From a virus: a DNA stretch of 64,000 nucleotides. The translations under genes and the position numbers were made by a program. Shown piece by piece: positions 2,536 to 60,534 of the stretch (the first letter of the stretch is position 1; each line of letters begins with the position of its first letter). The stretch spans positions 117,261 through 181,260 of the IMG/VR virus record IMGVR_UViG_3300021963_009993, one strand, 5' to 3'. The notes beneath the pieces are model-generated. The model ran no database searches and was not told where the DNA came from. It saw only the letters and a program-made list of their open reading frames with translations.

Positions 2536-2540
2536 GATAA

Positions 2541-3365: not shown

Positions 3366-3399
3366 ATTAACCCCGTTTATAAATATATAAGCTATTTAT

Positions 3400-3903: not shown

Positions 3904-3939
3904 GTTTTGTTCAAAGGCATATATACACTTGAGGCCTAT

Positions 3940-5739: not shown

Positions 5740-5740
5740 A

Positions 5741-7330: not shown

Positions 7331-7382
7331 AATACTAAAATTTAACTATACATATAACAACGAAAGAATTTGAAGAGGTGCT

Positions 7383-10195: not shown

Positions 10196-10334
10196 GTTTC
10201 ACCAAAAATTATTTACTACTTAATACATATTTTTTAGTTAACAAATGTTTTTTCTTTATTTTTTAATCAAAGAATTAACATAATACCATATATAACCCTA
10301 GCGTTTTGTATTAAAACTTTTGTGGAGAGTTAGC

Positions 10335-15285: not shown

Positions 15286-15388
15286 ATTTAAAAAATCAAT
15301 ATCAAACTAAATTTTGTGTTTTTACAATTTTATGACCTTGAAAAGGCTTTCTTACTGTGATAATATCTTAACAAGGAGAAAACACAAA

Positions 15389-26099: not shown

Positions 26100-26802
26100 T
26101 TAAACCTCCCAATACTTTAGTTACTCTTGCAAATGTATCTTTGCATTTTTTTCTTAATTCTGGCGTTAGTTGTGCGTTTGGATCAGTACCTAATACTTTG
26201 TCTAGTTCATCAGCCAAAACTTCACGCACGGGAAGAATTTTATCACCTTTCAATGATTGCACAGAAGCAGACCTGACTGCTTGATAAAGATCGCCAAGTG
26301 TTTTGTAACTAGTATTGTCTGACTCAATTACACCTAATTCATAAGCCTGTTTTAATCTTCTAACACTTTCAGCTTTGTCTGACTCTTGTAGACCACCATA
26401 AATACCTTTTACAGCATCAAACAATGGATCTACGACAGGTGGATTTGGGTCTGGATTTGGTGGTACTGGAACTGGAGGGTTTGGATTAGGGGCAGGATTC
26501 CCTACTATAATAGTTGTAAAAGCTGGTTGTGATGGGACATTATTCAAACAAGTATAAGCAAGGAGTCTGTATCTGCCTTCTTTGCTTGCTACAACAACAG
26601 TAGTTTTTTTGTCAACAAGTAAATTGCTTGGAAAAACATTTAAGCCGGGATCTAGTGAGACAAAAACTACTGTCTCACCTTTGGTTGTTGCTGTTACAGG
26701 AACAAATGCTGACACTTGAGCCTGAACTGTTTGTGGCAAAACAAGGTCTACTTGTTGATTTGTTACACAAATAATCAATCCAATAAAAAAACTTTTAAAC
26801 AT
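26092..26802 (-). CDS. Exported protein with Pro-rich linker
   Basis: Hydrophobic N-terminus; PAPNPNPPVPVPPNPDPNPP linker; overlaps the C1A gene start. Confidence 0.7.
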   Translation of the reverse strand: MFKSFFIGLIICVTNQQVDLVLPQTVQAQVSAFVPVTATTKGETVVFVSLDPGLNVFPSNLLVDKKTTVVVASKEGRYRLLAYTCLNNVPSQPAFTTIIVGNPAPNPNPPVPVPPNPDPNPPVVDPLFDAVKGIYGGLQESDKAESVRRLKQAYELGVIESDNTSYKTLGDLYQAVRSASVQSLKGDKILPVREVLADELDKVLGTDPNAQLTPELRKKCKDTFARVTKVLGGLNG

Positions 26803-44747: not shown

Positions 44748-44826
44748 ATTACTATATATGCTTGCTAAAAAGGAACCTTAAACTATTTTACACTAACTAT
44801 AATAAATTTACTAAACAAGGATTTTT

Positions 44827-45537
44827 ATGAAACCACTAGAAATAAAACCACATTTTATTAAAAGTTTTTATGCAAATGAATCACTAATAAGAATGTTTTT
44901 GAGTTACGACATGCTTTTGCCAAAGTTATCCGATATTTATACTGTAGATGGCAAAACATTAAATATTGGTATGATTTCATCCATGCATTGGTCTAGAACT
45001 TATGAATATTCTTGGTCTTACGATGTTGCAAAACTAGAAAAAAATCATTTGGTTTTAGACGCTGGTTGTGGCTATAGTGTTATAAAATACCCGATAGCTA
45101 AAAATTGTAGAAAAGTTGTCGGAATAGATTTAGATGAAAAATCGCTAACTCAAACTAAAGAGCATTGCAATATGCTTGGAATAGACAATATTGAACTATA
45201 CAAGTCTAATATTTCAGAATTTAAATATAATGAATTATTTGACAGAATTTTTTGTATAAGTGTTTTAGAACATGATGAAAGTAGAGAAAATAGAATTAAT
45301 TGCATAAAGAATATGATTGAACAATTAAAACCAGGAGGTTTATTTATATTTACTTATGATTTTTTTATTAGTGGCATTAGAAGAGATTTTCATATAGATG
45401 AAAAAGAATCAAATTTAATACTTGATTATTTTGGATTTGAAAATTTATATTTTAAAGATGAAACAGATGTTTTAGTAGCAGATGTGGATGGATCTGTTTT
45501 ATCTTGTGTTTGTTTAGTATATCAAAAATCTTACTAA
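44827..45537 (+). CDS. Class I SAM-dependent methyltransferase
   Basis: VLDAGCG, VVGIDL, FDRIFCISVLEH, LKPGG. Confidence 0.88.
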   Translation: MKPLEIKPHFIKSFYANESLIRMFLSYDMLLPKLSDIYTVDGKTLNIGMISSMHWSRTYEYSWSYDVAKLEKNHLVLDAGCGYSVIKYPIAKNCRKVVGIDLDEKSLTQTKEHCNMLGIDNIELYKSNISEFKYNELFDRIFCISVLEHDESRENRINCIKNMIEQLKPGGLFIFTYDFFISGIRRDFHIDEKESNLILDYFGFENLYFKDETDVLVADVDGSVLSCVCLVYQKSY

Positions 45538-47180
45538 TCTTTGAACATTTCAACAATAAGACTTAGCTCTGGAAGATTATCCATAGTTTCAGCAATTATT
45601 TGTGGGTGTCCTTGATTGAATTCTCTTTTTTCAACTCTAAAACCCACTTGTTCTCCTATACTTTTTAATCCATTAAAATCGTATGCAATACTATGTCCAT
45701 TAAATAGTAATGTCCACAACTTGCCACTCTGAAAAGAAAAAGACTCGCATTCATTATTAATTTCATCAAAGATTTGAAGTTTATTGTTTTGATATAGATT
45801 TATTATTTTTTCTAGGTCTGGGACAAGGATTCTAAAAGCTCCACCCTTTTTTAGAAGCCTGTAACATTCTTGCAAAAACAAAATACCTTCATCTCTTGTA
45901 AGATGTTCAAGCATATGACTGCTGTACATCAAATCTATTTTCTCATTTTCTATATTAATTTTTTTCCTAGCATCAAATTGTAAAAATTTATATTGATTAA
46001 CTTGTGCAAATTGATTTAAATCATGAATATCAAGATTTATCCATCCATTATGAAACATGTTTATAAAACTACCAAAATTCAGTTTTAATTTTCCATCTCC
46101 TGATGGTATGCTTAGGGACAAACTTCCTTTCTCAAGTGTTTCCTTATCTACTGGAACTTGTGTTTTTGGCATTCTTTCAAGCCACCAATTTTCATCATGA
46201 AGAGAGCAATGTGTTTTATCAAACCCATCATCATTTTCTCCATAATCAATTCCATGTATTCCTCTATTGCTAACACGATCTATTTCGTCCATAATTTTTG
46301 GCAATAACTTCTCTGGTATGTGTTCCATTACAGCTACAGAAAAACAAACATCAAATTCTTTATCTTTGAAAGGCCAAGGAGTTTCACATACATCAAATTC
46401 AACAACTGAATTAGTGACTCTTGTCAAATAGCAATGTTTAGAAATTTCCAAGCCTTTTGCTTTAATTCCATTGCTTTCAAATCTTTTTACCAAATAACCT
46501 CTAGCACAACCAATTTCTAAAACAGATTTAGGATTAAGTTCCATAATTTTATCAAAAGTTACCCAATGAACAGGATAATCCCAATAACCTTCTCGTGCAT
46601 AACCTCCAACTTTATGACCACCATTGAAATAATTTTTATCAAACAAAGATTTTCTCTCTGTTGAATTTAAGTCTTCAATATTTTGTTCCGGTTTCGTGGC
46701 TTCTATAATCATGTCTGTCCCCAATTCACCATGTGGTAAAATTATGATGTTTTCAAATCCTGTTTCAGATAAAAGCTTTATGGCATATTTTGGATTCAAG
46801 CTGTTTTTGTGTGTGTTATCAGAGTAATCTTGATCTCCAAATATTATGCAAGAACAATTATCATTCCATTCATCATGGTCTAATACCCATTTCATTTGTA
46901 TTTCTGTATTAGCTGTTACAAAAACAGCTTTAGAACTTGGTTTAAGTATTCTGTAGACTTCATTTAGAAAACCTTTTACTTTTCTCCATGAAATATGTTC
47001 TATGCAATAATGACTAAAAACACCATTATATTGGTTATCATTTATGGGCAATGGTTCATTAAAATCTGCAACTATATCAACATTTTCTTCTTTTCTTATA
47101 TCTAAATTAGGCCTAAAAAAGGGTCTGTTACCGCCACCTAATTCTATTACATTTTCTTTGAAAGGGAATGTATAACTCAT
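45534..47180 (-). CDS. Triple-domain SAM-dependent methyltransferase-like protein
   Basis: IELGGG...SHYCIEH...RILKP; VLEIGCARG...VAVMEH; LNFGS...SSHMLEH...RLLKKGG. Confidence 0.85.
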   Translation of the reverse strand: MSYTFPFKENVIELGGGNRPFFRPNLDIRKEENVDIVADFNEPLPINDNQYNGVFSHYCIEHISWRKVKGFLNEVYRILKPSSKAVFVTANTEIQMKWVLDHDEWNDNCSCIIFGDQDYSDNTHKNSLNPKYAIKLLSETGFENIIILPHGELGTDMIIEATKPEQNIEDLNSTERKSLFDKNYFNGGHKVGGYAREGYWDYPVHWVTFDKIMELNPKSVLEIGCARGYLVKRFESNGIKAKGLEISKHCYLTRVTNSVVEFDVCETPWPFKDKEFDVCFSVAVMEHIPEKLLPKIMDEIDRVSNRGIHGIDYGENDDGFDKTHCSLHDENWWLERMPKTQVPVDKETLEKGSLSLSIPSGDGKLKLNFGSFINMFHNGWINLDIHDLNQFAQVNQYKFLQFDARKKINIENEKIDLMYSSHMLEHLTRDEGILFLQECYRLLKKGGAFRILVPDLEKIINLYQNNKLQIFDEINNECESFSFQSGKLWTLLFNGHSIAYDFNGLKSIGEQVGFRVEKREFNQGHPQIIAETMDNLPELSLIVEMFKD

Positions 47181-47206
47181 AATTTTATCATAGTATTAAA
47201 TTACAA

Positions 47207-48217
47207 TTATGAATTTAATATTAATGATATTTCCTTTCTATAAGATTCTTTAATTTTATCCCATGTGTATTTTTCCGCTTGTTTTTGACACTCTTCTATT
47301 GTTGTAAAATTATTATTTTTATTATAATCTATAACTTCCATAAGTTTTTTTATTGATTTTTTTTCAACAACAAATCCGCAATCACCAACACAATCAGCTG
47401 CACCTGCTCCATCAGAAACAATAACTGGTCTTCCGCATGCCAGAGATTCCAAGACTTCTATGCCAAAACCTTCTGTAACACTTGGTTGAACATAAATGTT
47501 TATTTGATTATAAAAGTCTTCAATATTTTTAACGAAACCTAAGATATTAAAGTTGCCTTTGCCTAATTGTCTTATAATATGGATTAAACTTGTTGTTTGG
47601 GAACCAGCTAATGTTAGAACTGCATCTTTGTAATTAAGATTGGCCCACGCTTTTAATAAATATATTAAGCCTTTATCTGGCCCAATTTGACCTAGATATC
47701 CAACTGTGAATCTAGAAGGCTTGGCTTTTGCTTTCATGATATGTGTTCCGTGTGGCACAACAACTACATTTTTGCAGCCAAATTTTTCCATTATTTTTTT
47801 TGAGTGTTGTGAAGGACAAATTACTAAGTCTGCCAATAAATAACCATCAACATATTCCTTGAATAAACTAGCATCAGTAAGATGAGGAGCATTAAAATTC
47901 AAACCAAGACTCTCAAACTCTTTTTTACTTAAATCTACATCATGAGCAGCTGCTGTATAAATTATTTTTGACCCTTGTTTCTTTAGCTTTCTTATCGTTT
48001 TTGAAAATGTGCCAGAATAAAAATATGCCAGTTTTATATTTGAAAAATCTTCATTTATTATTTGATTTTCTGCCTCAAATGGTGATGCAGTTGGATTTGG
48101 ATTAAATACTTTTACTTCTCCTAAAGTAGTAAGAGCATCTAATTCATTTTTTGTGACTATGCCACCACCAGTCTGTGACCCTATCGCATCACATGTAAAA
48201 TAACCTAACATTACCAC
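47207..48217 (-). CDS. Glycosyltransferase family 4 (GT-B)
   Basis: GQIGPDKG, QPSVTEGFGIEVLESLACGRPVI. Confidence 0.9.
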   Translation of the reverse strand: MVMLGYFTCDAIGSQTGGGIVTKNELDALTTLGEVKVFNPNPTASPFEAENQIINEDFSNIKLAYFYSGTFSKTIRKLKKQGSKIIYTAAAHDVDLSKKEFESLGLNFNAPHLTDASLFKEYVDGYLLADLVICPSQHSKKIMEKFGCKNVVVVPHGTHIMKAKAKPSRFTVGYLGQIGPDKGLIYLLKAWANLNYKDAVLTLAGSQTTSLIHIIRQLGKGNFNILGFVKNIEDFYNQINIYVQPSVTEGFGIEVLESLACGRPVIVSDGAGAADCVGDCGFVVEKKSIKKLMEVIDYNKNNNFTTIEECQKQAEKYTWDKIKESYRKEISLILNS

Positions 48218-49230
48218 CCACCTGTTTCAACTGCTTCCAAACAAACTTTTTCATAATTTTCTACCATATTCTCATATGAAAATTGGGAAGCCCATTCTCT
48301 GCAATTTTCTGGCTTGATACTGGCAACAGCGTTTGATTTGACCAATTCATCTATTTCTTCTTTAGAAGTAACCAAGAATCCAGTTTCACCATGTTTAATG
48401 GTTTCTCGCATAGCTCCATTATCCCATGCTATAACTGGCATTCCACATAGTTGTGACTCAACTGGAGCTAGACCAAAAGGCTCTCTAAATTGTTGATTAG
48501 GATGTAATAAAGCTTTATTGCGATTAAACCATTCTACACATTCTGCTCTACTTTGTGGGCCAACATACCTCAAATTTGGATTCACATTACAAGCATTTTT
48601 TACTTCTGTAACTAATTGTGGTTCTCCAGTAAGAGTATCATCACCAACTAAATCCAAATTAACTCCGGTTGTAATTGCAACATTACAAGCTATGTGTGGG
48701 CCTTTTATTGTGCTAATTCTTGCAAGAAACAAATACCTATCATTTCTTTTCTTTTTTAAATTTTTATAAAAATCAACATCAACCCCGTTATAAACTGTTC
48801 TTGTTTCTAATTTCAAATGTTCTTTGCAAGCATCTCCTTGATCATTACTTATTGTAACAAAACAGGGCTTTTCAACAGGAGGAACTTCATTGTACATAGT
48901 GTGAATTGGAGCATGTAAAACACCTAGTACTGGGCATTTAATTACTCCTTGCATCTTTGCTACATATGACCACTTTTCCCAACTATGATCGATGATAACA
49001 TCAAATTCTTTTAGTTTTTCAACATAACCAAGATAAGCATATCTTTCTTTTTCTCCCAAAGTAGTTCCGTGCAACTCTGTTTCAGTTGTTGATTCTTTGG
49101 GAGCAATTAAGGTTACTTCATGTCCTTTTTTGTGAAGTCCATTAGCACATTGCCAGCTAATCATCTCTAAACCGGCATAACCATCTGGTGGACATTTAAT
49201 TACAGTTGTAGATATTACACAGATTTTCAT
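48211..49230 (-). CDS. Glycosyltransferase family 4 (GT-B)
   Basis: PPDGYAGLE, ARISTIKG, REPFGLAPVESQLCGMPVI. Confidence 0.9.
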   Translation of the reverse strand: MKICVISTTVIKCPPDGYAGLEMISWQCANGLHKKGHEVTLIAPKESTTETELHGTTLGEKERYAYLGYVEKLKEFDVIIDHSWEKWSYVAKMQGVIKCPVLGVLHAPIHTMYNEVPPVEKPCFVTISNDQGDACKEHLKLETRTVYNGVDVDFYKNLKKKRNDRYLFLARISTIKGPHIACNVAITTGVNLDLVGDDTLTGEPQLVTEVKNACNVNPNLRYVGPQSRAECVEWFNRNKALLHPNQQFREPFGLAPVESQLCGMPVIAWDNGAMRETIKHGETGFLVTSKEEIDELVKSNAVASIKPENCREWASQFSYENMVENYEKVCLEAVETGGW

Positions 49231-49883
49231 TAGATCACCGCCGGTTGATAAATATTTTCGCCACTTTCAGATAGACCCACATGTAGACACTTCACAGATG
49301 TGTCTACATAAATTTTAACACCTAAAGTTTTCTTGATATGCTTGCAAAATGCAAAATCTTCGCTGACTCTTTCTTTTGGGTCTAAGTCTGGTCTGTCACA
49401 TCTCCATTCAAACCATCTGCACTTTTCGCTTATTGGCGGGGTTGCAAGCAACAAATCTCTGTGAATCAACATGCAACCCGAACCAACCATATCCACTTCC
49501 ACTAATTCATTCTGTCTATATTCTGTTATCCATTTTGGCACACCATCTTCTTGCTCTTTGAGCATTACAGGATATAAAGGCAAGTTTCTCCTGTAGTAAA
49601 GACCACTCACTATAGGTAATTTATGATTCATCAATTTGAAAATTGCGTCATGTGGCAAAATCATGTCGTCATCTAAAAAGAATAACCATTCCCAATCAAG
49701 ATCTAAGAGTCTGTTGCATGCTGTGTTTCTTGCATGATCGAATGGCATTCCACTAAAAAAAGCAAATGTTCCGGGTATTTGCAAATTTCTAAAATTTGAT
49801 GCCCATTTGGTCGTAACCATTTCTCTGGTTAATATACAAGTAAGAACTCTGTTTTGTTTTATTATTTCCCATGATCCAGCCAT
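49230..49883 (-). CDS. Glycosyltransferase family 2-like (GT-A)
   Basis: DHARN, LFFLDDD (DxD), VGSGCMLI, SEDFAFC. Confidence 0.85.
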   Translation of the reverse strand: MAGSWEIIKQNRVLTCILTREMVTTKWASNFRNLQIPGTFAFFSGMPFDHARNTACNRLLDLDWEWLFFLDDDMILPHDAIFKLMNHKLPIVSGLYYRRNLPLYPVMLKEQEDGVPKWITEYRQNELVEVDMVGSGCMLIHRDLLLATPPISEKCRWFEWRCDRPDLDPKERVSEDFAFCKHIKKTLGVKIYVDTSVKCLHVGLSESGENIYQPAVI

Positions 49884-49955
49884 TTATTCACCATTTGTTG
49901 CTTGTTTTCAAAAATAAAATAGTAGATTTATTAAATTTTTAACTATAATTATTTT

Positions 49956-51329
49956 ATGCTAAAGAAAATTTTAAACGATGATTGGAAATGGTGGACTTGG
50001 GTTTTTTGGAAAAACAGCGGTGGCAACAAAGATGCTGTTTTTCAAGTTCTTCTAAATCATGGATTTGATTTTGATTCAATAAGCAAAGAATTGAATTACA
50101 CACCTACAAATGATTTTATTCTTAACAGAAAATCAACACAGTTAAACTTAAACAAAGAACCGAATGTAATAATTGGAGATCTTTGTAAAAATTTTGCAGA
50201 CAATCCAAACTTTATCAGAATAGACTCAAATGATTTGGAAATTTATTATTCTCCAGCTGTTTTAACACAGGAAGAATGTGACAAAATAATATCAGAAGTA
50301 CAATTAAACGAAGAAGGAATAAAGTATCCAAATTTTGAAAATTTTGAAGCCATGAAGGTTGCTAATTCTAAAATAAACCAAGCTTGCAAAATTACAGACA
50401 AGGATCATATTGATTTTGAATTTATAAAAATACCCAAGGACACACCCAATAATTGCAAAAACGATTGGGAAATAAATGCAAAAAGAACATGGACAATTTT
50501 AATTTTTCTACATGACACAGAAAATCCATGTTATGGATTTCCTTTTTTGCCTAAGTATTTCAAAGGTGTTAAAGGTGGAATACTAATTTGGAACAATTAT
50601 TTAGCTGATGATACAGCGAATGGTTTTTCAGAAAACTGCGTTTATAAATCAGAAATTGAAAATTGGTTTTCAATCAAAAAACACTTTTCTTTTTACAAAC
50701 CAGAACCAGAAGTTATTCCTGAATTTAATCAAAAATTAATTAACAATCCGATGTGTAAAAAAATTGATACATCGAAGTTGGAAATTTATGAAGTCGAAGA
50801 TTTTATGTCTGAATCCGAGTGCAATGAATTTTTGGAAAATATGGCTGATAAATTGTTGCCATCAACTGTAACAAATCCAGAAGCTGAAAAATCTGTTAGA
50901 ACAAGTTCTACAGCATATCTTAAAAGAAATGAGTTTTTAGAAAAATTAGACAAAAAATTTCATGATTTCATCGATGTCCCACAAGGATTTTCAGAGGAAT
51001 TTCAGGGACAAAGATATTTGGTTGGACAAGAATTCAAACAGCATAATGATTGGTTTGATGAAAATTCAACATACAATAAAGTTCATTTAAATATGGGACA
51101 AAGAACTTGGACTTTTATGGTTTATCTTAATGATGTTGAAGAAGGTGGAGAAACTGAATTTACAAAACTAAAATTATCAATCAAACCAAAGAAGGGTAAA
51201 GCTGTCATATGGCAAAACCTTTACGCTGACGGTCGTGGCAATCCATTTTCTGAACATGCTGGCAAACCTGTAATTAAGGGTGAAAAAAACATTGTTACTA
51301 AATGGTTTAGACAACGAAGTAGCACATAA
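49956..51329 (+). CDS. Prolyl 4-hydroxylase-like 2OG-Fe(II) oxygenase (degenerate domain plus intact domain)
   Basis: C-domain: RTSSTAYL, Q.QRY..GQEFKQHNDW (HxD), QRTWTFMVYLNDVEEGGET.F, SEHAG..V.KGEK...TKW. Confidence 0.88.
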   Translation: MLKKILNDDWKWWTWVFWKNSGGNKDAVFQVLLNHGFDFDSISKELNYTPTNDFILNRKSTQLNLNKEPNVIIGDLCKNFADNPNFIRIDSNDLEIYYSPAVLTQEECDKIISEVQLNEEGIKYPNFENFEAMKVANSKINQACKITDKDHIDFEFIKIPKDTPNNCKNDWEINAKRTWTILIFLHDTENPCYGFPFLPKYFKGVKGGILIWNNYLADDTANGFSENCVYKSEIENWFSIKKHFSFYKPEPEVIPEFNQKLINNPMCKKIDTSKLEIYEVEDFMSESECNEFLENMADKLLPSTVTNPEAEKSVRTSSTAYLKRNEFLEKLDKKFHDFIDVPQGFSEEFQGQRYLVGQEFKQHNDWFDENSTYNKVHLNMGQRTWTFMVYLNDVEEGGETEFTKLKLSIKPKKGKAVIWQNLYADGRGNPFSEHAGKPVIKGEKNIVTKWFRQRSST

Positions 51330-51331
51330 AA

Positions 51332-52294
51332 TCAAACAAGATTGTTTTCCTTTATGTATTTGGCAATTTCATCGTTTGCAAAACTATCTGTAACTTGTGA
51401 ATTCTTTACAGGAATATCCATAAAGAATTTCAAAACTTTCTTTATGGATTTTTTGTTCTTTATAAACTTGGCAAAATTTTCACCATTTTTAACATAAAGT
51501 TTCTGTAACCAAATCGGCCCTGTGCTAAACATCCATTCACGGAATTTAATCCAATCTCTGTTATCCACTCCGTATACTTCTCTAGCAACCCAACATGGTG
51601 TTGGTGGTGGACTTGGTGAAGGAGATGGTGAAGGTGGTGGACTTGGTGAAGGAGATGGTGAAGGTGGTGGACTTGGCGGTGGTGAAGGTGGAGGTGAAGG
51701 TGGTGTTGGTGGTGGACTCGGCGGTGGTGAAGGTGGTGCTGCCGTTGTGCTACTAGTTGTAGAAGTGGTTGTAGTAGTTGTTGTTGTTGTTGTAGTTGTT
51801 GTTGTCATTGTAGAAGCATTTTCAATATTTGATCCTGAATATGTATAGGTGCCACCATCTGCATAAACATAGGATGAATCTACAGCCGATGGTATTATGT
51901 TATCTGTAATTGTTAGTTCTACTGTATCTGTGCTATAGACTGTTCCTGTTATAGAATAATCTGCTGTCATATCTGTAGAACTGTATGAACTTAAAGATAT
52001 TGTTCTGGAAACAGTATTTACTTTAAATGTAAGCCCTGCTGCTGCCTGAGCCATAACATAATCATCAAAAGAAAAACCTGCTGGTATATTTACTGGCTGT
52101 GTAAAACCTACTTGCAATACAGTTCCAGCTGAAGTAATCTTGGGTTTTGGTCTAGGAGGTGGAGCATAAGGATTAGTTACAGGTTTAGTTGCTGTACCGG
52201 GATAAATTACGACTGGCAAGCCATTACCACCGCCAGCACAAGTGCCAACACCACCATTTGGTCTTCGTTTGCATCTTCTTGTAATTCCAGCCAT
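51332..52294 (-). CDS. Thr-/Ser-Pro-rich (extensin/mucin-like) protein with C-terminal CWVAREVYG domain
   Basis: Poly-Thr tract, PPSPPPSPPPTPPSPPP...SPSPSPPP; ATG 52294 overlaps the TAA of the giant fibre gene. Confidence 0.8.
   Translation of the reverse strand: MAGITRRCKRRPNGGVGTCAGGGNGLPVVIYPGTATKPVTNPYAPPPRPKPKITSAGTVLQVGFTQPVNIPAGFSFDDYVMAQAAAGLTFKVNTVSRTISLSSYSSTDMTADYSITGTVYSTDTVELTITDNIIPSAVDSSYVYADGGTYTYSGSNIENASTMTTTTTTTTTTTTTTSTTSSTTAAPPSPPPSPPPTPPSPPPSPPPSPPPSPSPSPSPPPSPSPSPSPPPTPCWVAREVYGVDNRDWIKFREWMFSTGPIWLQKLYVKNGENFAKFIKNKKSIKKVLKFFMDIPVKNSQVTDSFANDEIAKYIKENNLV
51603..51735 (-). repeat. Coding microsatellite-like Ser-Pro repeats including a 30-nt duplicated unit
   Basis: GGTGGTGGACTTGGTGAAGGAGATGGTGAA twice at 51603-51662. 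Confidence 0.8.
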
Positions 52295-55200
52295 TATGCC
52301 ACTCTCCATCCAGCAGAAGCAGAACCATTATTTGTTGAATCGTAAATTAATTCAGCATAATCATTCGGACCTAAAATTATATCTGTTCCTTGTATATTGA
52401 AAAATTTATTGCCTGCACTAGATGAAGCAGAATTATGGGTGAGTGTAATATTTGCTGTTCCAACATTATACAATTTTATAATTTCCCCATCAGAACCAGC
52501 TGTTATACCTGTAATTGATGAAGCGGTAGTGCAATTTACACGCAAGAAAGATCCTCCTCCGGGTGCCCAGTTATTCTGGCTAGCCGTGAGATTTACAGTA
52601 GTTGATGTAAATCTAACTCTTGAGCTAAATTGACCAGTAGTTCCAAAGACAGTACCACCAGACATATTTGTTGCCGTTGTTGCTGTAGTAGCATTACCAG
52701 CTAAAGCACCTGTAAGATTCGTTGCTGTTATTGCGGTTAGTCCAGATATAATAGAAGCTGTTGCACCAAGACTTACTGATGTAGAACCGATTGTTACTGA
52801 ACTGTTTGTAAGGCTTGCGTTTGCGATACTACCAGCAAGGATATGAGGGCTACCAATGACATTGGCACCGATTTGTCCAGAAAGAATACTGGCAGCAGCA
52901 TGATGATTAGTACCAACAGAGCCAGAAGCAATAAGACCACTAACAACACCAGCATTAGGTATGCTAAAAGTAACATTACCAGTACCGGCACTAACACTAA
53001 TGCCAGTACCAGCAGTAGCTTGTGTAACACCAGCGTTAGTAAGAGTAACACTTGAACCAAGAGATACTGCACCACCACCAGCAAGACCAGTACCAGCTGT
53101 TACTGTTACAGAAGAGTTTGCAAGTTTAGTGTTTGAAATAGTTGAGTTAGTAATATTAGCATCGTTAACAGCACTAGCACCAAGCATACCACTAGTAATG
53201 TTGCCACTAGTGATACTCCAAGTTTGAGCAGCAGAGCCATTGAAAGATGAACCAGTTAAACCAGCACCAGCACTATGACTATTAGTTGTATTTGCTGTTA
53301 TTGTAATATCAGCAGATCCATTGAAACTTGTGCCATTAATGTTTTTTGCGGTTTGAAGTGTAGTTGCAGTACTAGCATTGCCAGTTAAAGCACCAGTAAA
53401 TGTAGTAGCAGCAACACTAGTTAAGCCAGCCAAGGTTGTAGCAGTTGAACCTAAACTTACTGATGTAGAACCAATAGTTACTGAAGAGTTGGCAAGATTA
53501 GCGTTTGCGATAGTACTTGCAGCTATTTTGGCACCAGTAATCTGACCAGAAGCTATGTTTCCAGTAACGATAGCATTGTCACCAAGATCACCAGAGACAA
53601 CAGCACCTGAAGCTAATTGAGTTCCAGTAATACTACCACTAGCAATACTAAAAGTAACATTGCCAGTACCAGCACTAACACTAATGCCAGTACCAGCGGT
53701 AGCTTGAGTGACACCAGTATTTGTAAAAGTAACACTACCAGTACCAGCACTAACACTAATGCCAGTACCAGCGGTAGCTTGAGTAACACCTGCATTAGTA
53801 AGAGTAACGCTTGAACCAAGAGATACTGCACCACCACCAGTAAGACCAGTACCAGCTGTTACTGTTACAGAAGAGTTTGCAAGATTTGTATTCGCAATAG
53901 TACTTGCAGCTATATGGCTTCCTCCTATTTGACCAGAAGCAATATTGCCACTTGTTACTGCGTTGTTTCCAATGTTTCCACTAACAATTGTTCCGCTAGA
54001 TAAAGTTGGAGAAGATATGTTTGTTGAAGAAGCATTACCACCAGCTGTTATGTCTAAGTAAAATCCTCTTGCCAAACCACCTTGTTCAAAAAATCTTAAT
54101 TTGTTTTGATAAACATCGATTACTACACCAGTTCCAGATATTGTAGTGTTTGTAACAGGTTTTGCAAGTTGTATTTCACCACCTTCATCACCAACAGAAT
54201 TTGTAGACTTAATATATGTTGCAGATAAATTAGTTCCATCCCATGTTAAATTTGATGTTGAACCAAATGAATTTCCATTATTAAATTGAATTTGACCAGA
54301 AGAACCGTTTGGAATCGCACTTGCAAGTACACCACTTGCCAAATGATTTAAACCTATTTGACCAGAAGCAATACTTCCACTTATTACAGCACTAGCACCA
54401 AGCATGCCACTAGTAATGTTACCACTAGTGATACTCCAAGTTTGAGCAGAAGATCCGTTGAATGAAGATCCGGTAATACCAGCACCAGCACTATGAATAT
54501 TAGTTGTGTTTGCTGTTATTGTAATATCAGCAGATCCATTGAAACTTGTACCGTTGATACTTCTTGCTGTTTGAAGTGTAGTTGCAGTACTAGCATTGCC
54601 AGTTAAAGCACCAGTAAATGTAGTAGCAGCAACACTAGTTAAGCCAGCCAAGGTTGTAGCAGTTGAACCTAGGCTTACTGATGTAGAACCGATTGTTACT
54701 GAACTGTTTGTAAGGCTTGCGTTTGCGATACTACCAGCAAGTATATGAGGACTACCAATGACATTAGCACCGATTTGTCCAGAAAGAATACTGGAAGCAG
54801 CATGATGATTAGTACCAACAGAGCCAGAAGCAATAAGACCACTAACAACACCAGCATTAGGTATGCTAAAAGTAACATTTCCAGTACCGGCACTAACACT
54901 AATGCCAGTACCAGCAGTAGCTTGTGTAACACCAGCGTTAGTAAGAGTAACGCTTGAACCGAGAGATACTGCACCACCACCAGTAAGACCAGTACCAGCT
55001 GTTACTGTTACAGAAGAGTTTGCAAGTTTAGCGTTTGAAATAGTTGAGTTAGTAATATTAGCATCATTGACAGCACTAGCACCAAGCATCCCACTAGTAA
55101 TGTTGCCACTAGTGATACTCCAAGTTTGAGCAGCAGAGCCATTGAAAGATGAACCAGTTAAACCAGCACCAGCACTATGGCTATTAGTTGTGTTTGCTGT

Positions 55201-58200
55201 TATTGTAATATCAGCAGATCCATTAAAACTTGTACCGTTGATACTTCTTGCGGTTTGAAGTGTAGTTGCAGTACTAGCATTACCAGTTAAAGCACCAGTA
55301 AATGTAGTAGCAGCAACACTAGTTAAGCCAGCCAAGGTTGTAGCAGTTGAACCTAGGCTTACTGATGTAGAACCGATTGTTACTGAACTATTGGCAAGGT
55401 TAGCGTTTGCAATAGTACTTGCAGCTATTTTGGCACCAGTAACTTGACCGGAAGCGATGGCATTTGTTGAAACGCTATTATCACCTAACAGTCCACTAAC
55501 GATGGCACCAGAACCAACAGCAATAGTGACAGCACCAGAGCCATTATAAGACCCACCAGTAAGACCAGTACCAATTGTTAATGCTGCATTATTGTAAGAA
55601 GCACCTAGTGCAGTACTGGCACCATTAATTGTTACTGTAGAGTTTGCAAGGCTTGCGTTTGCGATACTACCAGCAAGTATATGAGGACTACCGATGACAT
55701 TGGCACCGATTTGTCCAGAAAGAATACTGGCAGCAGCATGATGATTAGTACCAACAGAGCCAGAAGCAATTTTACCACTAGTTACAGCATTGTCAGCAAC
55801 ATCAGCATTTATAACGGCCCCGGAAGCTATGTGTTCAGCCGTAATACTTCCACTAGCAATCTTGACACCAGTAACCTGACCAGAGGCGATGGCGTTCGTT
55901 GAAACGCTATTGTCACCTAAAAGTCCACTAACGATAGCACCAGAACCAACAGCAATAGTGATAGCACCAGAACCATTGTAAGAACCACCAGTAAGGCCAG
56001 TACCAATAGTTAATGCTGCGTTGTTATAAGATGCACCTAGTGCAGTACTTGCACCATTGATTGTTACTGAAGAGTTTACAAGATTTGCATTAGCAATAGT
56101 ACTTGCAGCTATTTTGGCACCAGTAACTTGACCGGAAGCGATGCTGCCTGTAACTACAGCATTGTCACCAAGATCACCAGAGACAACAGCACCTGAAGCT
56201 AATTGGGTTCCAGTAATACTTCCACTAGCTATACTAAAAGTAACATTTCCAGTACCGGCACTAACATTAATGCCAGTACCAGCAGTAGCTTGAGTAACAC
56301 CAGTATTTGTTAGTGTTACTCCACCAGTAGTTGCAGTTGCACTAATTCCAGTACTACCACTTATACTTGTAACACCAGCGTTAGTAAGAGTAACGCTTGA
56401 ACCGAGAGATACTGCACCACCACCAGTAAGACCAGTACCAGCTGTTACTGTTACAGAAGAGTTTGCAAGTTTAGCGTTTGAAATAGTTGAGTTAGTAATA
56501 TTAGCATCATTGACAGCACTAGCACCAAGCATCCCACTAGTAATGTTGCCACTAGTGATACTCCAAGTTTGAGCAGCAGAGCCATTGAAAGATGAACCAG
56601 TTAAACCAGCACCAGCACTATGGCTATTAGTTGTGTTTGCTGTTATTGTAATATCAGCAGATCCATTAAAACTTGTACCATTGATGCTTCTTGCAGTTTG
56701 AAGTGTAGTTGCAGTACTAGCATTACCAGTTAAAGCACCAGTAAATGTAGTAGCAGCAACACTAGTTAAGCCAGCCAAGGTTGTAGCAGTTGAACCTAGG
56801 CTTACTGATGTGGAGCCAATCGTTACCGAAGAATTGGCAAGGTTAGCGTTTGCAATAGTACTTGCAGCTATTTTGGCACCAGTAACTTGACCGGAAGCGA
56901 TGGCATTTGTTGAAACGCTATTATCACCTAGCAGTCCACTAACGATGGCACCAGAACCGATGGCAATAGTGACAGCACCAGAACCATTGTAAGACCCGCC
57001 AGTTAATCCAGTACCGATTGTTAATGCTGCATTGTTATAAGAAGCACCTAGTGCAGTACTTGCACCATTAATTGTTACTGAACTATTGGCAAGGTTTGCA
57101 TTTGCAACACTACTTGCAGCTATATGGTTTCCTCCTATTTGACCAGAAGCAATGTTGCCACTTGTTACAGAAGAATTTGCCAAAAATGAATTTATTATAG
57201 ATCCACTACCAATATTAATTGTTGTATTATTTGCACCATTAAATGAACCGGCTGCAAATCCAGAGCCAAATGTAAGCGTACCAGAAATTGTTGCACTTAC
57301 TGAACCAGAACCACCTAATGATATTGAATTTCCATTAATCATAATAGAACTATTTTGTAAATTCGCATTTGTAATTGCTGAAGCAGCAATATGACTTGTG
57401 CCAATTTGGCCAGAAGCAATATTCCCACTCATGATAGAACTTGCTGCTATATTTCCGCTAGATACAGAACCAGATCCCAAACTACCAGCAGGTATTGGAG
57501 TTGTTGTTGTTGCTGGAGGAGAGGTTGTGGGTGTTTGATAAATAGTGTATGCTGTTAAACTATAATTTATAAAATTTGAAGTATTATACCAAGACATATG
57601 TTCAAAAATTGATGTGGGACTTGATAATCCAGCATTTGTGACAGCCTCAACAGTAAAAGATTCGGTGTTTATTATCGTTATTGTGTTATCACCTATATTA
57701 TTTGGTGTGAAAATACTCACATCAAAATCAACATTTGCTTTGGTGCTGTTTGTCCATGTTGTTCTAGGATAACCAACAATATCATATTCATTTCCAGATT
57801 CTAATAGTTTAAACCTTAATGTTACTGAAGTTTTTGTTGTTCCACTAAACTGTTTGAGTTTTAACGATAGGGTTTTCAACGAACCCATAGAACTATTGGC
57901 AGTTCTGAAAACAAAACCTTGATAAGTCGCAAGACTTACAGAAGAAATATCTGCAACTTCAAGGCAATTTAATACTAAAGGATTGTTTACAGCTAAAGCT
58001 TGAGTTACTGTTGTTGCGCTAGTAACAGCCATATTACCACTAGATAAAGCTTGCTTGGCATAACTATCAGCATTTGTTACATTTAAATATAAATTTGTTA
58101 AATTAGAAAAAGATAAATTTTGTTGTAATCCACTTGAGTCTGTTACCGGATATGGCGACAATCCAAATTGCGCTCTATCTTTTGATAAAGAATATGTACT

Positions 58201-58500
58201 TGATAAATCAGATATTGACTCATCATTTAAAGGATAAAAATAACCAGAAAATGTATTATAATTTGAATTTTTGAATGTATAGTATCCTGATGATAATTCA
58301 ATTAATTTGTTGCTCATAGCAACATAAAGATCTCGTCCACTTGATATAAGTTGGGTTGCTGAGTTAATTTGCCCAGAAGTCGTTGTTGGGGCGTAATTTA
58401 TGGAATAATTACCACTTCCCGTATGAGACATAGTTAAAAGAGGAGCTATTTGATTTACTTTATACATCAAATAACCAAAATTATCATAATTTAAAGCCAT
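52294..58500 (-). CDS. Giant repetitive tail-fibre/adhesin-like protein (2068 aa)
   Basis: S/T/G/A/N/I-rich, few charged residues; GNASTATTLQTARSING fibre motif; repeated modules; compact C-terminal tip domain. Confidence 0.8.
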   Translation of the reverse strand: MALNYDNFGYLMYKVNQIAPLLTMSHTGSGNYSINYAPTTTSGQINSATQLISSGRDLYVAMSNKLIELSSGYYTFKNSNYNTFSGYFYPLNDESISDLSSTYSLSKDRAQFGLSPYPVTDSSGLQQNLSFSNLTNLYLNVTNADSYAKQALSSGNMAVTSATTVTQALAVNNPLVLNCLEVADISSVSLATYQGFVFRTANSSMGSLKTLSLKLKQFSGTTKTSVTLRFKLLESGNEYDIVGYPRTTWTNSTKANVDFDVSIFTPNNIGDNTITIINTESFTVEAVTNAGLSSPTSIFEHMSWYNTSNFINYSLTAYTIYQTPTTSPPATTTTPIPAGSLGSGSVSSGNIAASSIMSGNIASGQIGTSHIAASAITNANLQNSSIMINGNSISLGGSGSVSATISGTLTFGSGFAAGSFNGANNTTINIGSGSIINSFLANSSVTSGNIASGQIGGNHIAASSVANANLANSSVTINGASTALGASYNNAALTIGTGLTGGSYNGSGAVTIAIGSGAIVSGLLGDNSVSTNAIASGQVTGAKIAASTIANANLANSSVTIGSTSVSLGSTATTLAGLTSVAATTFTGALTGNASTATTLQTARSINGTSFNGSADITITANTTNSHSAGAGLTGSSFNGSAAQTWSITSGNITSGMLGASAVNDANITNSTISNAKLANSSVTVTAGTGLTGGGAVSLGSSVTLTNAGVTSISGSTGISATATTGGVTLTNTGVTQATAGTGINVSAGTGNVTFSIASGSITGTQLASGAVVSGDLGDNAVVTGSIASGQVTGAKIAASTIANANLVNSSVTINGASTALGASYNNAALTIGTGLTGGSYNGSGAITIAVGSGAIVSGLLGDNSVSTNAIASGQVTGVKIASGSITAEHIASGAVINADVADNAVTSGKIASGSVGTNHHAAASILSGQIGANVIGSPHILAGSIANASLANSTVTINGASTALGASYNNAALTIGTGLTGGSYNGSGAVTIAVGSGAIVSGLLGDNSVSTNAIASGQVTGAKIAASTIANANLANSSVTIGSTSVSLGSTATTLAGLTSVAATTFTGALTGNASTATTLQTARSINGTSFNGSADITITANTTNSHSAGAGLTGSSFNGSAAQTWSITSGNITSGMLGASAVNDANITNSTISNAKLANSSVTVTAGTGLTGGGAVSLGSSVTLTNAGVTQATAGTGISVSAGTGNVTFSIPNAGVVSGLIASGSVGTNHHAASSILSGQIGANVIGSPHILAGSIANASLTNSSVTIGSTSVSLGSTATTLAGLTSVAATTFTGALTGNASTATTLQTARSINGTSFNGSADITITANTTNIHSAGAGITGSSFNGSSAQTWSITSGNITSGMLGASAVISGSIASGQIGLNHLASGVLASAIPNGSSGQIQFNNGNSFGSTSNLTWDGTNLSATYIKSTNSVGDEGGEIQLAKPVTNTTISGTGVVIDVYQNKLRFFEQGGLARGFYLDITAGGNASSTNISSPTLSSGTIVSGNIGNNAVTSGNIASGQIGGSHIAASTIANTNLANSSVTVTAGTGLTGGGAVSLGSSVTLTNAGVTQATAGTGISVSAGTGSVTFTNTGVTQATAGTGISVSAGTGNVTFSIASGSITGTQLASGAVVSGDLGDNAIVTGNIASGQITGAKIAASTIANANLANSSVTIGSTSVSLGSTATTLAGLTSVAATTFTGALTGNASTATTLQTAKNINGTSFNGSADITITANTTNSHSAGAGLTGSSFNGSAAQTWSITSGNITSGMLGASAVNDANITNSTISNTKLANSSVTVTAGTGLAGGGAVSLGSSVTLTNAGVTQATAGTGISVSAGTGNVTFSIPNAGVVSGLIASGSVGTNHHAAASILSGQIGANVIGSPHILAGSIANASLTNSSVTIGSTSVSLGATASIISGLTAITATNLTGALAGNATTATTATNMSGGTVFGTTGQFSSRVRFTSTTVNLTASQNNWAPGGGSFLRVNCTTASSITGITAGSDGEIIKLYNVGTANITLTHNSASSSAGNKFFNIQGTDIILGPNDYAELIYDSTNNGSASAGWRVA
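52790..57130 (-). repeat. Interspersed long direct repeats (about 0.2-0.5 kb modules) inside the fibre gene
   Basis: For example 52794-53227 vs 54696-55129; 53024-53500, 54928-55400 and 56370-56840; inspected differences are mostly synonymous. Confidence 0.9.
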
Positions 58501-58533: not shown

Positions 58534-60534
58534 TTAAACATAAATAGTTCCAGCAATATATTTTTGATAAATTGAATAATTTACCGCAGAAGCCGCAGCA
58601 AAAACTCTGTAGTATTGTGAAGTAAGTCCTATAGAAGGCTTATAAGATATTGTTGAAAGATTGCAATAAAAGTTAGTTGTCGTAAACCAGTCTTGTCCAG
58701 CCTGTACTGGCACAGGTTGATAATAACCACTAATATTAGCAAAGCCAGATACTACGATTGGATAGATCGATCCGGCGACACTTCCAGCAGCTTGTGGGCC
58801 AATAGCAGTATAACCACCAAATGTTACTGGTTGTGTATCCAAGCCTTGCACATAGTATATTGAACTTTCGGCATGCCACGGATAAAATGTATTTGCTGTT
58901 TGACCATTTGGAATTGGATTGAATCTGTTGTAATTAAATGGAAGCGTGTTTACATTATACAACAATCTTCTATCTAAAGTGTTGACTAGGTTATTGTTTA
59001 CACCAAGATGGGATGGGTATGTTGTACCCGAAAGAGTGCCACCACTCCAAACCCCATATCCACTAGATGGCAAAATAGCAGCTGTTCCCAAATATCTTCT
59101 TGAAAAATCACCAGATTGAACATAAACACCATTTAATACATTTAATATACCAGTTGTTGGTCTTGTTGCATAGTTTGTCCAAGGTGGACCCCAGTCCATA
59201 GCAACTCTTCCAGATGTAACACCACCAGATATTGCATATGCAAATATGTCCCTGACAGTTCCAGCTAAAAAGCCTCCACCAGATGCAGCACTTGCTGCAA
59301 GCGATGTTGAGCCAGAAATTGTATATATTTGCCATGCACCAGTAACATTGTTGTATAAAGATACTTGGTTTCCTTCATATTGTTCCAAGAAAACATTAGC
59401 ACTTCCACTTATGTCAACATTTTGTACTGGTGAACCGCTTTGCAATGTCAATCTTGTATTATTAGGATATTTGTATCCTACTGTGTCTAATGTTCCAGAG
59501 GCAAACTTATCTACAGTTAAAACACCTTGACCAATAACATTCGGACCAATAGCTCCAGATGCTATATTTCCTGAAACTATACCTGCGTTTCCAGTTACAC
59601 CACTTTGTATAAATCCAGAACTTACGGAAAATCTGTTAACCGCACCGCTTGCTATTTTTCCACTTACTACTGCATTATTAGCAAGCATCAAACTAATTAT
59701 TCCACCGCTAGCAACACTTGCAGTTTTTGCAACAGAACCATCAAAAGAATCAAGAGAATATGATAAACCAGAACCAAAAATGAGAGCTTGAGGAGTATTT
59801 GCAGTTATGGTTATATTTGCACTACCATCAAAAGAACCACTATTAATTAATCTTGGTGTAATCAACCTTGTTGCTGTTGTGGCATCTCCAGACAAAGTTC
59901 CTCTGAAATAAGTTGACTGAACAGACACCATGCCACTTATAAATGTGACACCAGAGCCAAGTCTTACATCTGTGCTTCCCAAGGTGATGTTTGGTGTTTG
60001 TAACATGCCAACTGTAATTCCAGATTGTGCAATGTTTAAAATTCCAGATGTTGTTCCATCATATGAAATTGCTTGAATTCCAGAACCTGCTATCAAAGGG
60101 AAATATAATGCTGATTTAATTGTGATATCTGAGGTTCCATCAAAAGAACCACTATTAATCAATCTTGCTGTTTGCAATCTTGTTGCTGTAGAGGCGTTTC
60201 CTGTGAAAGATCCACTAGAAGTTATTGTCGCAATAACATTGCTGTTGTTGTCCCTAAACTGTATTAAATCTGGATTTATTCCTCCACCAAAAACACTTAG
60301 TGCTGTTCTTCCAGATGCAGCAAATATATTTACTTGGGCACCAGATGTTACATTTCCAGATCCCATGACCAAAAGTCCAGATGATTGAATTTGAAAATTA
60401 AGACCATCTGGTGAAGTGAATTTTAAACTGCCATCTGCTTCTGCACTTAAAGTAACAGGATTAGAAGCTCCAGAACCATTAAATTGAATTGTTGGTGGTA
60501 CTGCTTGTGGGTTTATTTTTATATTTTGTGGCAT
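58534..60534 (-). CDS. Tail-fibre-like protein (paralog A)
   Basis: GNASTATRLQTARLINSGSFDG; YPNNTRLTLQSG.P domain. Confidence 0.75.
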   Translation of the reverse strand: MPQNIKINPQAVPPTIQFNGSGASNPVTLSAEADGSLKFTSPDGLNFQIQSSGLLVMGSGNVTSGAQVNIFAASGRTALSVFGGGINPDLIQFRDNNSNVIATITSSGSFTGNASTATRLQTARLINSGSFDGTSDITIKSALYFPLIAGSGIQAISYDGTTSGILNIAQSGITVGMLQTPNITLGSTDVRLGSGVTFISGMVSVQSTYFRGTLSGDATTATRLITPRLINSGSFDGSANITITANTPQALIFGSGLSYSLDSFDGSVAKTASVASGGIISLMLANNAVVSGKIASGAVNRFSVSSGFIQSGVTGNAGIVSGNIASGAIGPNVIGQGVLTVDKFASGTLDTVGYKYPNNTRLTLQSGSPVQNVDISGSANVFLEQYEGNQVSLYNNVTGAWQIYTISGSTSLAASAASGGGFLAGTVRDIFAYAISGGVTSGRVAMDWGPPWTNYATRPTTGILNVLNGVYVQSGDFSRRYLGTAAILPSSGYGVWSGGTLSGTTYPSHLGVNNNLVNTLDRRLLYNVNTLPFNYNRFNPIPNGQTANTFYPWHAESSIYYVQGLDTQPVTFGGYTAIGPQAAGSVAGSIYPIVVSGFANISGYYQPVPVQAGQDWFTTTNFYCNLSTISYKPSIGLTSQYYRVFAAASAVNYSIYQKYIAGTIYV

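Follow-up and report, generated by a model that had tools for sequence, protein, structure and literature searches.

A block of genes in a 64,000-nucleotide stretch of viral DNA, the last 64 kb of the 181,260-bp IMG/VR phage record IMGVR_UViG_3300021963_009993 and referred to here as the window, is interpreted with slightly better than even confidence as a set for tailoring the virion proteins of a huge aquatic phage, in which a prolyl 4-hydroxylase (P4H) would act on an adjacent protein carrying Ser-Pro-Pro-Pro (SPPP) repeats. Along the minus strand, the fibre genes are followed by the SPPP protein gene and then, beyond the antisense P4H gene, by a cassette consisting of a glycosyltransferase of GT-A fold (GT-A), two family 4 glycosyltransferases (GT4b and GT4a) and a methyltransferase, MT3x; a second methyltransferase gene, MT1, is convergent with MT3x and overlaps it by 4 nt. 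The record is about 38% complete by CheckV, which implies a genome of roughly half a megabase. Genes for a large terminase, a portal and a major head protein are also present in the window, its fibre genes form a series on the minus strand, and the region has no megablast match among cultured phages.

The oxygenase is, by sequence and by predicted structure, a prolyl 4-hydroxylase of the collagen/algal type with a complete Fe(II)/2-oxoglutarate site, as originally predicted. A phmmer search of the PDB, with matches considered at E ≤ 1, gave prolyl 4-hydroxylases only (best 1e-32), and residues 265-457 likewise match only these enzymes, including those of Bacillus anthracis (1.4e-33), human C-P4H alpha-2 (1.5e-22), Chlamydomonas (1.3e-21) and the chlorovirus PBCV-1 (1e-13). 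The best Foldseek match of the predicted model is PDB entry 3gze, in which the algal P4H was solved together with a (Ser-Pro)5 peptide (1e-17, template modelling score 0.78), and P4Hs occupy the range from 1e-17 to 5e-13, whereas PHD-type enzymes appear at 5e-9 or weaker. An identity as a PHD/HIF-type enzyme was rejected on these grounds, only P4Hs being found by sequence and P4Hs lying well ahead by structure. TET/JBP and AlkB enzymes, the other families against which the oxygenase was to be compared, are absent both from the PDB sequence matches at this threshold and from the listed structural matches, and the protein groups instead with collagen, algal and chlorovirus P4Hs.

The hallmarks of a P4H are a double-stranded beta-helix, the HxD...H ligands of Fe(II) and, for 2-oxoglutarate, a Lys that follows the distal His at a distance of ten residues. 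The corresponding residues, H363, D365, H434 and K444 (the last at +10 from the distal His), are invariant in an alignment of 36 sequences, comprising the window protein and 35 homologues, and align to the equivalent residues of 3itq, 7zsc and 2jig; the catalytic domain is modelled with a predicted local distance difference test (pLDDT) score mostly above 90. The peptide-binding residues of the algal enzyme, which we take to be Arg93, Ser95, Glu127, Tyr140, Arg161, Trp243 and His245, reportedly had their contact roles in Cr-P4H described by Koski and colleagues in 2009. R315, S317, E347, R383 and W450 of the phage protein match these presumed contacts; Tyr140 is replaced by Phe360 and His245 by Arg452, both substitutions being fixed in the phage clade.

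Two further segments precede the catalytic domain. The helical head formed by residues 1-65 is about 50% identical to the N-termini of 285-aa single-domain phage P4Hs. Residues 75-250 resemble the protein's own catalytic domain (27% identity, E = 2e-10 by BLASTP) and, although modelled at low confidence, represent an inserted P4H-fold copy that is catalytically dead to judge from its residues: the His of HxD is replaced by Lys and the distal His by Asn, so that both His ligands are lost. None of the 35 aligned homologues carries such an insert, and no second full-length match to this dead-plus-live arrangement was found in the protein database. The possibility that the insert is a fused copy of a 182-aa protein encoded beside related P4Hs was ruled out, as the two have no similarity. 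The gene is the sole PF13640 member in the 181-kb record.

The SPPP protein gene converges on that of the P4H with the tight spacing originally described, although 2 nt, rather than the 3 nt then given, lie between the ends at 51329 and 51332. Its likely ATG, at 52294, shares nucleotides with the TAA that ends the 2068-aa fibre gene (TAATG) and is preceded by GGAGAG, an arrangement that fits the translational coupling proposed for the two genes. The fibre itself, first described as giant and S/T/N-rich, is a repetitive, Ser/Thr/Asn/Gly-rich protein with matches to phrog tail-fibre families. Translation of the neighbouring gene likewise bears out the expected poly-Thr tract, with seven SPPP units and SP runs; the units are always SPPP, never SPPPP. 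Eight of the PPP runs of the 181-kb record lie in this protein, which has the richest Pro tract there. At the DNA level, the Ser/Thr-Pro tract consists of imperfect tandem repeats with periods of 12, 24 and 30, and the poly-Thr tract is a GTT-type repeat on the plus strand. The coding frame is real: IMG/VR contains more than 580 relatives of the last 88 residues, and the protein has an ortholog in the closest related contig. Collagen-like GXY repeats, an alternative substrate for a P4H, are absent from the 181-kb record.

The C-terminal module (CWVAREVYG...W..FR.W...P.W...LY...GE.FA.FI; residues 238-325) has its relatives confirmed by tblastn, mostly on contigs of about 45 kb or less. In every case read it forms the C-terminus of a protein of 350-1370 aa, usually preceded by a Gly/Ala-rich segment, and L047, the single locus followed over its full length, has the module in a gene surrounded by structural genes. 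PHROGs, Pfam and NCBIfam gave no match for the SPPP protein or for this module, and an ESM Atlas search returned only unnamed viral clusters. Two phage homologues weakly match the whole of the NF041770 CFI_box_CTERM profile (17.5 bits at E = 0.0026 and 13.6 bits at E = 0.045, the cut-off being 40 bits); the window's own module does not match it. The module may be distantly related to the CFI-box-CTERM domain. It is among the commonest unannotated phage protein endings met in this study (L043-L122).

A single-sequence scan of IMG/VR with the N-terminal domain of the SPPP protein found nothing. Among 1.8 billion representatives there were three distant matches, each lying in a repeat unit of a large protein; Ig/cadherin or Calx-beta repeats occur in two of these proteins. 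The domain is probably an Ig-like beta-sandwich. The whole protein may be pictured as a displayed domain, a poly-Thr/SPPP stalk of about 70 residues and a C-terminal anchor module. Other short Pro-rich linkers occur in the genes at 26092-26802 (-) and G000:C1:78918-86396 (+) (PNPNPPVPVPPNPDPNPP and PTPVPTPTPTPTPVPTPPPAP), and these proteins are possible additional targets of hydroxylation or glycosylation.

The predicted enzymes of the cassette agree in most respects with the original prediction. The four methyltransferase domains are distributed as one in MT1 and three in MT3x according to Pfam profiles, and both family 4 glycosyltransferases exceed the PF00534 cut-off of 26.4 bits (99.3 and 69.7 bits). 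GT4a also has generic GT4 matches in NCBIfam, including the protein O-glycosyltransferases SdgA/SdgB and GtfA, all far below cut-offs, and MT3x weakly matches the NCBIfam sugar O-methylases MftM and a Pse-associated methylase. The label 'GT2' given to the 217-aa gene proved imprecise, because neither PF00535 nor any other Pfam or NCBIfam profile matches it at E ≤ 0.01. It matches phrog_1574 and a further phrog annotated as 'glycosyltransferase', and its AlphaFold (AF2) model (pLDDT 82.9) has a GT-A fold with an invariant D71-D72-D73 motif. The nearest solved folds (Foldseek, VIA-align) are STIV A197 (Z 19.5), human LH3 (17.4) and mimivirus R699 (16.1), followed by Mnn9 (15.9) and a COLGALT1-like chain (15.2), with generic GT-A enzymes from 13.2 down.

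The level of conservation of the cassette was studied in two sets of related loci, all of them on fragments: 28 IMG/VR contigs containing relatives of GT4b (65-76% identical), and 33 metagenome loci recovered with an alignment of GT-A, an alignment being needed as a single-sequence scan of IMG/VR with GT-A found nothing. Where the loci are long enough, GT-A, GT4b, in many cases MT1, GT4a and MT3x follow one another in constant order. MT3x is 51-70% identical in most related contigs and 40% identical in the most distant, GT4a is conserved, and many relatives have an MT1 homologue (36-39% identical) within the cassette. In all 21 assessable IMG/VR loci the GT-A side is bordered by fibre-like genes, in at least four arrangements, and fibre genes also flank the cassette in most metagenome loci with enough flanking sequence; pieces homologous to the window's more distal fibre genes are among these neighbours. 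The cassette is predicted to glycosylate virion proteins and to methylate their sugars. By contrast, the expected linkage of the P4H to fibre genes across related genomes was not borne out: no P4H is present in the 28 IMG/VR loci, the 33 metagenome loci or five whole related contigs. The cassette is therefore not dependent on hydroxyproline, being retained in about 60 relatives that lack the enzyme.

The slot between the fibre genes and GT-A, in which the P4H lies, is variable, with five different gene contents among relatives. Some contain a PF13759 2-oxoglutarate-dependent oxygenase (ten IMG/VR loci) and a 389-aa GT-A-like protein (13), others a 165-aa or a 167-aa protein, and five (L123, L164, L159, L162 and L172) have Pro/Ser/Thr-rich proteins upstream of GT-A. 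L123 and L164, the closest relatives by GT4b identity, carry directly upstream of GT-A an ortholog of the SPPP protein with poly-Thr, (TP)/(SP)n repeats and the same C-terminal module (8742-9236 in L123). In L123 a terminator hairpin stands where the window has the P4H gene, and the sequence upstream of GT-A resembles that of the window. As these closest relatives without a P4H have the Ser-Pro protein at this place, the P4H is a lineage-specific insertion where the gene for that protein adjoins the cassette. The insertion coincides with a change of the repeats from (SP)n to SPPP, and among the compared cassette loci both the inserted P4H and a stalk of SPPP units are found only in the window phage.

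With the PF13759 genes the slot holds a second oxygenase-plus-transferase pair, unrelated to the first. In L146 the pair lies at 7096-7683 (-) and 8062-9237 (-), the oxygenase matching its profile at 1e-23 and the C-terminal half of the 389-aa protein being GT-A-like; it is also seen in L130, L132, L135, L137, L140, L145, L147, L149, L150 and L165-L170.

P4H homologues elsewhere in phages provide independent instances of the proposed association. Among further P4H loci, obtained with a profile scan, L195 and L196 encode a P4H that is 50% identical to that of the window, has the same helical head and converges, at a distance of 3 nt, on an operon for a (TP)n or (SPVP)n protein, a glycosyltransferase of the HPAT family (PF23452, scoring 31.6 bits where the cut-off is 23.9) and the 182-aa protein. 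L231 combines a (TP)n protein and a GT32-like gene with the P4H/182-aa pair, and in L226 and L256 fibre genes precede those for a Pro-rich protein, a 430-aa P4H and a protein that fuses HPAT, O-FucT and GT60 (PF11397) domains; these families act in protein glycosylation in eukaryotes. Of 118 P4H loci, 20 contain homologues of such hydroxyproline-type glycosyltransferases, corresponding to about 17 distinct contigs, whereas neither the 80 control phage loci nor the 61 cassette loci contain any.

The first three of these loci occupy L195:5977-9189, L196:5870-9115 and L231:6001-9808 on uncultured phage contigs of 23-79 kb, and the others L226:4506-11262 and L256:3637-11104, L226 having one more GT60 gene. 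The 182-aa protein has an HxD motif, and homologues accompany the closest P4H relatives as well (L001-L010, L187-L194).

Several of the results count against hydroxylation of the SPPP stalk. The homologues nearest to the P4H (57-60% identical, on large phage contigs) lie beside genes for PrkA, SpoVR, DUF444, DNA polymerase III, ribosomal protein S21 and peptide deformylase and have no Pro-rich neighbour, and none of 36 IMG/VR P4H loci found by single-sequence search has glycosyltransferase, methyltransferase, fibre or SPPP homologues nearby. The homologue in Erwinia phage Y3 lies among replication genes and that in Microcystis phage Mel-JY01 in a non-structural region. Strongly Pro-rich open reading frames of any kind, in a crude count, are not enriched (7 of 77 P4H loci against 6 of 80 control phage loci). 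The best sequence match, the B. anthracis enzyme, modifies EF-Tu according to the title of PDB entry 5v7y. All aligned solved P4Hs have a Tyr three residues before the catalytic His, where the phage clade has Phe, and the -10-like motif preceding the P4H and MT1 genes is common to a nuclease gene and not to the structural genes. The adjacency of P4H and SPPP protein represents a single evolutionary event and not a trend; its probability by chance is about 2 in the roughly 250 gene junctions of the record, but it is less improbable than 1% because the slot is a hot spot of gene turnover. Virion membership of the SPPP protein, moreover, is predicted from synteny only. As regards the sugars, no cassette gene matches the Pfam families of hydroxyproline-specific glycosyltransferases (HPAT/GT95 PF23452, GT60 PF11397, GT31), and tblastn with the phage HPAT-like and GT60 genes found no match in the 181-kb record, about 38% of the genome.

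Many of these observations would be expected if the P4H were an accessory 'moron' enzyme acting on some host protein or other phage protein, for instance of the translation machinery, that landed by chance beside an unmodified SPPP linker. The genomic settings of its nearest homologues and of the Y3 gene, the EF-Tu title, the five contents of the slot, the shared promoter-like motif and the occurrence of SP repeats in relatives without any P4H all agree with this alternative. It is nevertheless judged rather unlikely, given an insertion placed precisely beside the gene for the record's only SPPP protein, the pairing of homologous P4Hs with Pro-rich proteins and hydroxyproline-type glycosyltransferases in other phages, and the recurrence of a second oxygenase family in the same slot. 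A link between P4H and SPPP protein is favoured for these reasons, namely that the insertion is precise, that both partners are unique in the record, that oxygenases recur in the slot and that other phages have independent sets of P4H, Pro-rich protein and hydroxyproline-directed transferase. Hydroxylation of the SPPP protein is consequently regarded as a modestly favoured prediction from these comparisons.

What the cassette modifies is a separate question. The P4H may hydroxylate the SPPP stalk and thereby only stiffen its polyproline-II rod, with the cassette unrelated to hydroxyproline and glycosylating Ser/Thr of the fibres and poly-Thr tracts. This is a narrower version of the preferred interpretation and is considered rather unlikely. 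In its favour, the cassette is conserved and linked to fibre genes in about 60 contigs without a P4H, no HPAT or GT60 gene is detected in the record by tblastn, and poly-Thr tracts and Ser-rich fibres would offer many acceptors. On the other side, the nearest folds of GT-A glycosylate a hydroxylated residue, collagen hydroxylysine. Glycosylation of hydroxyproline itself is put forward tentatively and judged rather unlikely. A yet weaker candidate is that the cassette acts on the host envelope, on a lipid-linked glycan or on phage DNA and merely travels with the fibre module. The GT4 and GT-A enzymes are generic, with all matches to curated families far below cut-off, and a paper on large aquatic phages gives modification of DNA and of host serotype as alternative roles of phage glycosyltransferases (PMC12619734). 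The cassette stays beside fibre genes through at least four rearrangements, however, with low-complexity Ser/Thr/Pro proteins recurring at its edge, and no flippase, polymerase, initiating transferase or base-hydroxymethylase adjoins it, making such a target improbable. Of the original proposal that the phage hydroxylates and glycosylates its own fibres, the class of the hydroxylase and the link between cassette and fibre genes have stood; the cassette is not dependent on hydroxyproline, and the record has no match to a hydroxyproline-specific glycosyltransferase.

Under the favoured interpretation, in which the P4H acts on the SPPP protein, the cassette would be inherited with the fibre genes and would build a short O-methylated glycan in the cytoplasm, placing it directly on the Ser/Thr-rich low-complexity stalks of fibre-associated proteins. 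In the window phage and its two closest relatives, the likely acceptor would be the small protein encoded just upstream of the cassette, with its displayed beta-sandwich, a poly-Thr and Ser-Pro stalk of about 70 residues (about 20 nm if extended) and the CWVAREVYG module, which is probably the virion anchor. The P4H would convert prolines of the SPPP tract to 4-hydroxyproline, which would stiffen a polyproline-II stalk and may add sites for O-glycosylation; the inserted dead copy may, speculatively, help to hold the repetitive substrate. In its fullest form, this scheme would have the phage make its own extensin- or mucin-like glycoprotein, a rigid glycan-coated virion whisker in which SPPP units are clamped by the dead copy, hydroxylated, and decorated with O-methylated sugars on hydroxyproline and Ser/Thr. 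That full combination, together with its corollary that the phage is one of a wider class possessing hydroxyproline-glycoprotein systems with lineage-specific transferases, is considered doubtful.

The hydroxylation of prolines in repetitive structural proteins with subsequent glycosylation is deemed a eukaryotic process, known from collagen, plant and algal walls and Skp1, and the chemistry of hydroxylation and glycosylation also occurs in a few giant viruses of eukaryotes. A close parallel, alongside protein tailoring in chloroviruses and mimivirus, is the plant and algal hydroxyproline-rich glycoprotein pathway, in which a P4H is followed by an HPAT (GT95) and further arabinosyl- and galactosyltransferases. 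The phage enzyme has in common with algal Cr-P4H-1 the catalytic tetrad and most of the presumed peptide-contact residues, and the SPPP/SP candidate substrate resembles extensins and arabinogalactan proteins. It differs from the algal enzyme in the Tyr to Phe substitution and the extra dead domain, and its setting is cytoplasmic, lacking a secretory pathway, with SPPP in place of SPPPP. Judged from its genes, the module misses one defining feature of the pathway, the hydroxyproline-specific glycosyltransferase: the record has no HPAT/GT95 homologue, unlike other phages. The P4H of PBCV-1 (vCPH, PDB 5c5t) is similarly virus-encoded and belongs to the family of the phage enzyme (1e-13 by phmmer, 5e-13 by Foldseek), and PBCV-1 encodes its own glycosylation enzymes. 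The sequences are distant, however, PBCV-1 is a virus of a eukaryotic alga and not a tailed phage, and in contrast to the Pro-rich repeat proteins of PBCV-1 the phage candidate substrate is the immediate neighbour in a tail-fibre operon. The B. anthracis enzyme (PDB 3itq, 5hv0, 5v7y), 34-37% identical over the domain, is a soluble single-domain bacterial protein without the helical head or the dead duplicate; the titles of its PDB entries give collagen-like peptides as well as EF-Tu as substrates.

Two eukaryotic pathways join an oxygenase to glycosyltransferases in a comparable way. In that of collagen, an oxygenase precedes GT-A enzymes acting on a repetitive structural protein, and the hydroxylysine glycosyltransferases LH3 and COLGALT1/GLT25D1, together with mimivirus R699, have the folds nearest to GT-A after STIV A197. 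Identity is only 12-15%, however, the match to LH3 covers residues 290-552 and not the N-terminal glycosyltransferase domain, and it is lysine rather than proline that is hydroxylated; a common fold does not show a common acceptor. In the Skp1 pathway of Dictyostelium and Toxoplasma, a cytoplasmic P4H (PhyA) is followed by cytoplasmic glycosyltransferases (Gnt1, GT60), and GT60-type genes (PF11397) accompany the P4Hs of L226 and L256. Here, by contrast, there is no GT60 match in the record, PhyA belongs to the PHD type, whose structural matches to the phage enzyme are far weaker than those of collagen-type P4Hs, and a single proline rather than a repeat is modified.

Among phages, glycosylation of virions has been shown in mycobacteriophages (Freeman 2023, via PMC12619734), where glycosyltransferase genes lie beside structural genes, as here, and the enzymes decorate virion proteins. 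Their targets are the C-termini of capsid and tail-tube subunits, with the chemistry shown; the phages belong to another lineage with another host, and as described in that source the systems involve no hydroxylase or methyltransferase array (PMC12619734). The statement that no bacteriophage equivalent of the system was known must for this reason be limited to prolyl hydroxylation, for which it holds: literature searches gave no account of a virion protein hydroxylated at proline by a phage enzyme, aquatic-phage P4Hs being given only as auxiliary genes. The window adds a variant with a differing transferase set and a tandem dead-plus-live hydroxylase. If tailed phages do hydroxylate their own fibre-linked proteins, this chemistry would be far more widespread than is assumed, glycan coats may be present on phages of oxygenated waters and affect their adsorption, stability and recognition, and the many 'prolyl 4-hydroxylase' auxiliary metabolic genes of aquatic viromes would gain a concrete role open to testing. 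One enzyme and one neighbouring 320-aa candidate substrate make the window compact enough for such tests, for which relatives that have the substrate and cassette without the hydroxylase are natural controls.

Table 1. Features of the proposed tailoring module and the adjoining fibre genes, in window coordinates.
Feature	Coordinates	Strand	Basis
MT1, single-domain S-adenosylmethionine-dependent methyltransferase	44827-45537	+	PF13847 2.9e-17, PF08241 2.8e-12
MT3x, 548 aa, three methyltransferase domains, last cassette gene	45534-47180	-	Methyltransf_11 4e-28, three stretches
GT4a, GT-B family 4 glycosyltransferase	47207-48217	-	PF00534 2.3e-28
GT4b, second GT4 glycosyltransferase	48211-49230	-	PF00534 2.8e-19
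GT-A glycosyltransferase, 217 aa, first cassette gene	49230-49883	-	phrog_1574, AF2 model, fold matches
Divergent intergenic region GT-A/P4H, 72 nt	49884-49955	.	AACTATAAT -10-like motif
P4H oxygenase gene	49956-51329	+	PF13640 1.7e-16
P4H residues 1-65, helical head	49956-50150	+	pLDDT 86-96
P4H residues ~75-250, inserted degenerate P4H-fold copy	50178-50705	+	BLASTP to own catalytic domain
P4H residues 265-457, catalytic domain	50748-51329	+	phmmer/Foldseek matches to P4Hs
SPPP protein gene	51332-52309, more likely start 52294	-	Open reading frame, TAATG overlap
SPPP protein, CWVAREVYG C-terminal module, residues 238-325	51335-51598	-	>580 IMG/VR relatives
SPPP protein, Ser/Thr-Pro repeat tract, residues 191-237	51599-51739	-	Translation
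SPPP protein, poly-Thr/Ser tract, residues ~167-190	51740-51811	-	Translation
SPPP protein, N-terminal part: basic/Pro head and ~110-residue probable beta-sandwich	51812-52294	-	Weak matches
2068-aa Ser/Thr/Asn/Gly-rich repetitive fibre	52294-58500	-	phrog tail-fibre families 3e-24 to 4e-6
Fibre-module gene	58534-60534	-	phrog tail-fibre match; same run as 2068-aa fibre
Fibre-module gene	60545-62554	-	Position in fibre run
Fibre-module gene	62562-63848	-	phrog tail-fibre match

A further association of a low-complexity protein with a possible glycosylation gene is present upstream of the window, in the segment L151 (G000:C1:100000-116000). A 1329-aa Thr/Pro-rich protein (1962-5951) is overlapped there by an MptE-like/DUF115 (Maf-type) gene at 5948-6844, with a match to PF01973 (1.8e-5) below the cut-off, and this combination is counted in favour of virion-protein tailoring by the phage. 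A GT9 gene and then a volactin gene (PF25216, 1.8e-63) follow, at 9663-10616 and 10865-11923.

The motif AACTATAAT, which resembles a -10 element, lies 7 nt before the ATG of the P4H gene and also upstream of MT1. Its occurrences in the record are at 49942-49950, 44796-44804 and 3886-3894 (-) of the window and at G000:C1:115108, and the genes that it precedes are those for the P4H, MT1, a 160-aa protein and a PD-(D/E)XK nuclease, and not the structural genes read. It may be the mark of a promoter class; general scans for sigma-70 promoters and terminators gave no more sites than were found in shuffled sequence. Elsewhere in the window, directly after the major head gene, a 553-aa protein (15314-16975, +) has matches to HNH/homing-endonuclease and Mom-like DNA-modification phrogs, together with an endonuclease VII-like end.

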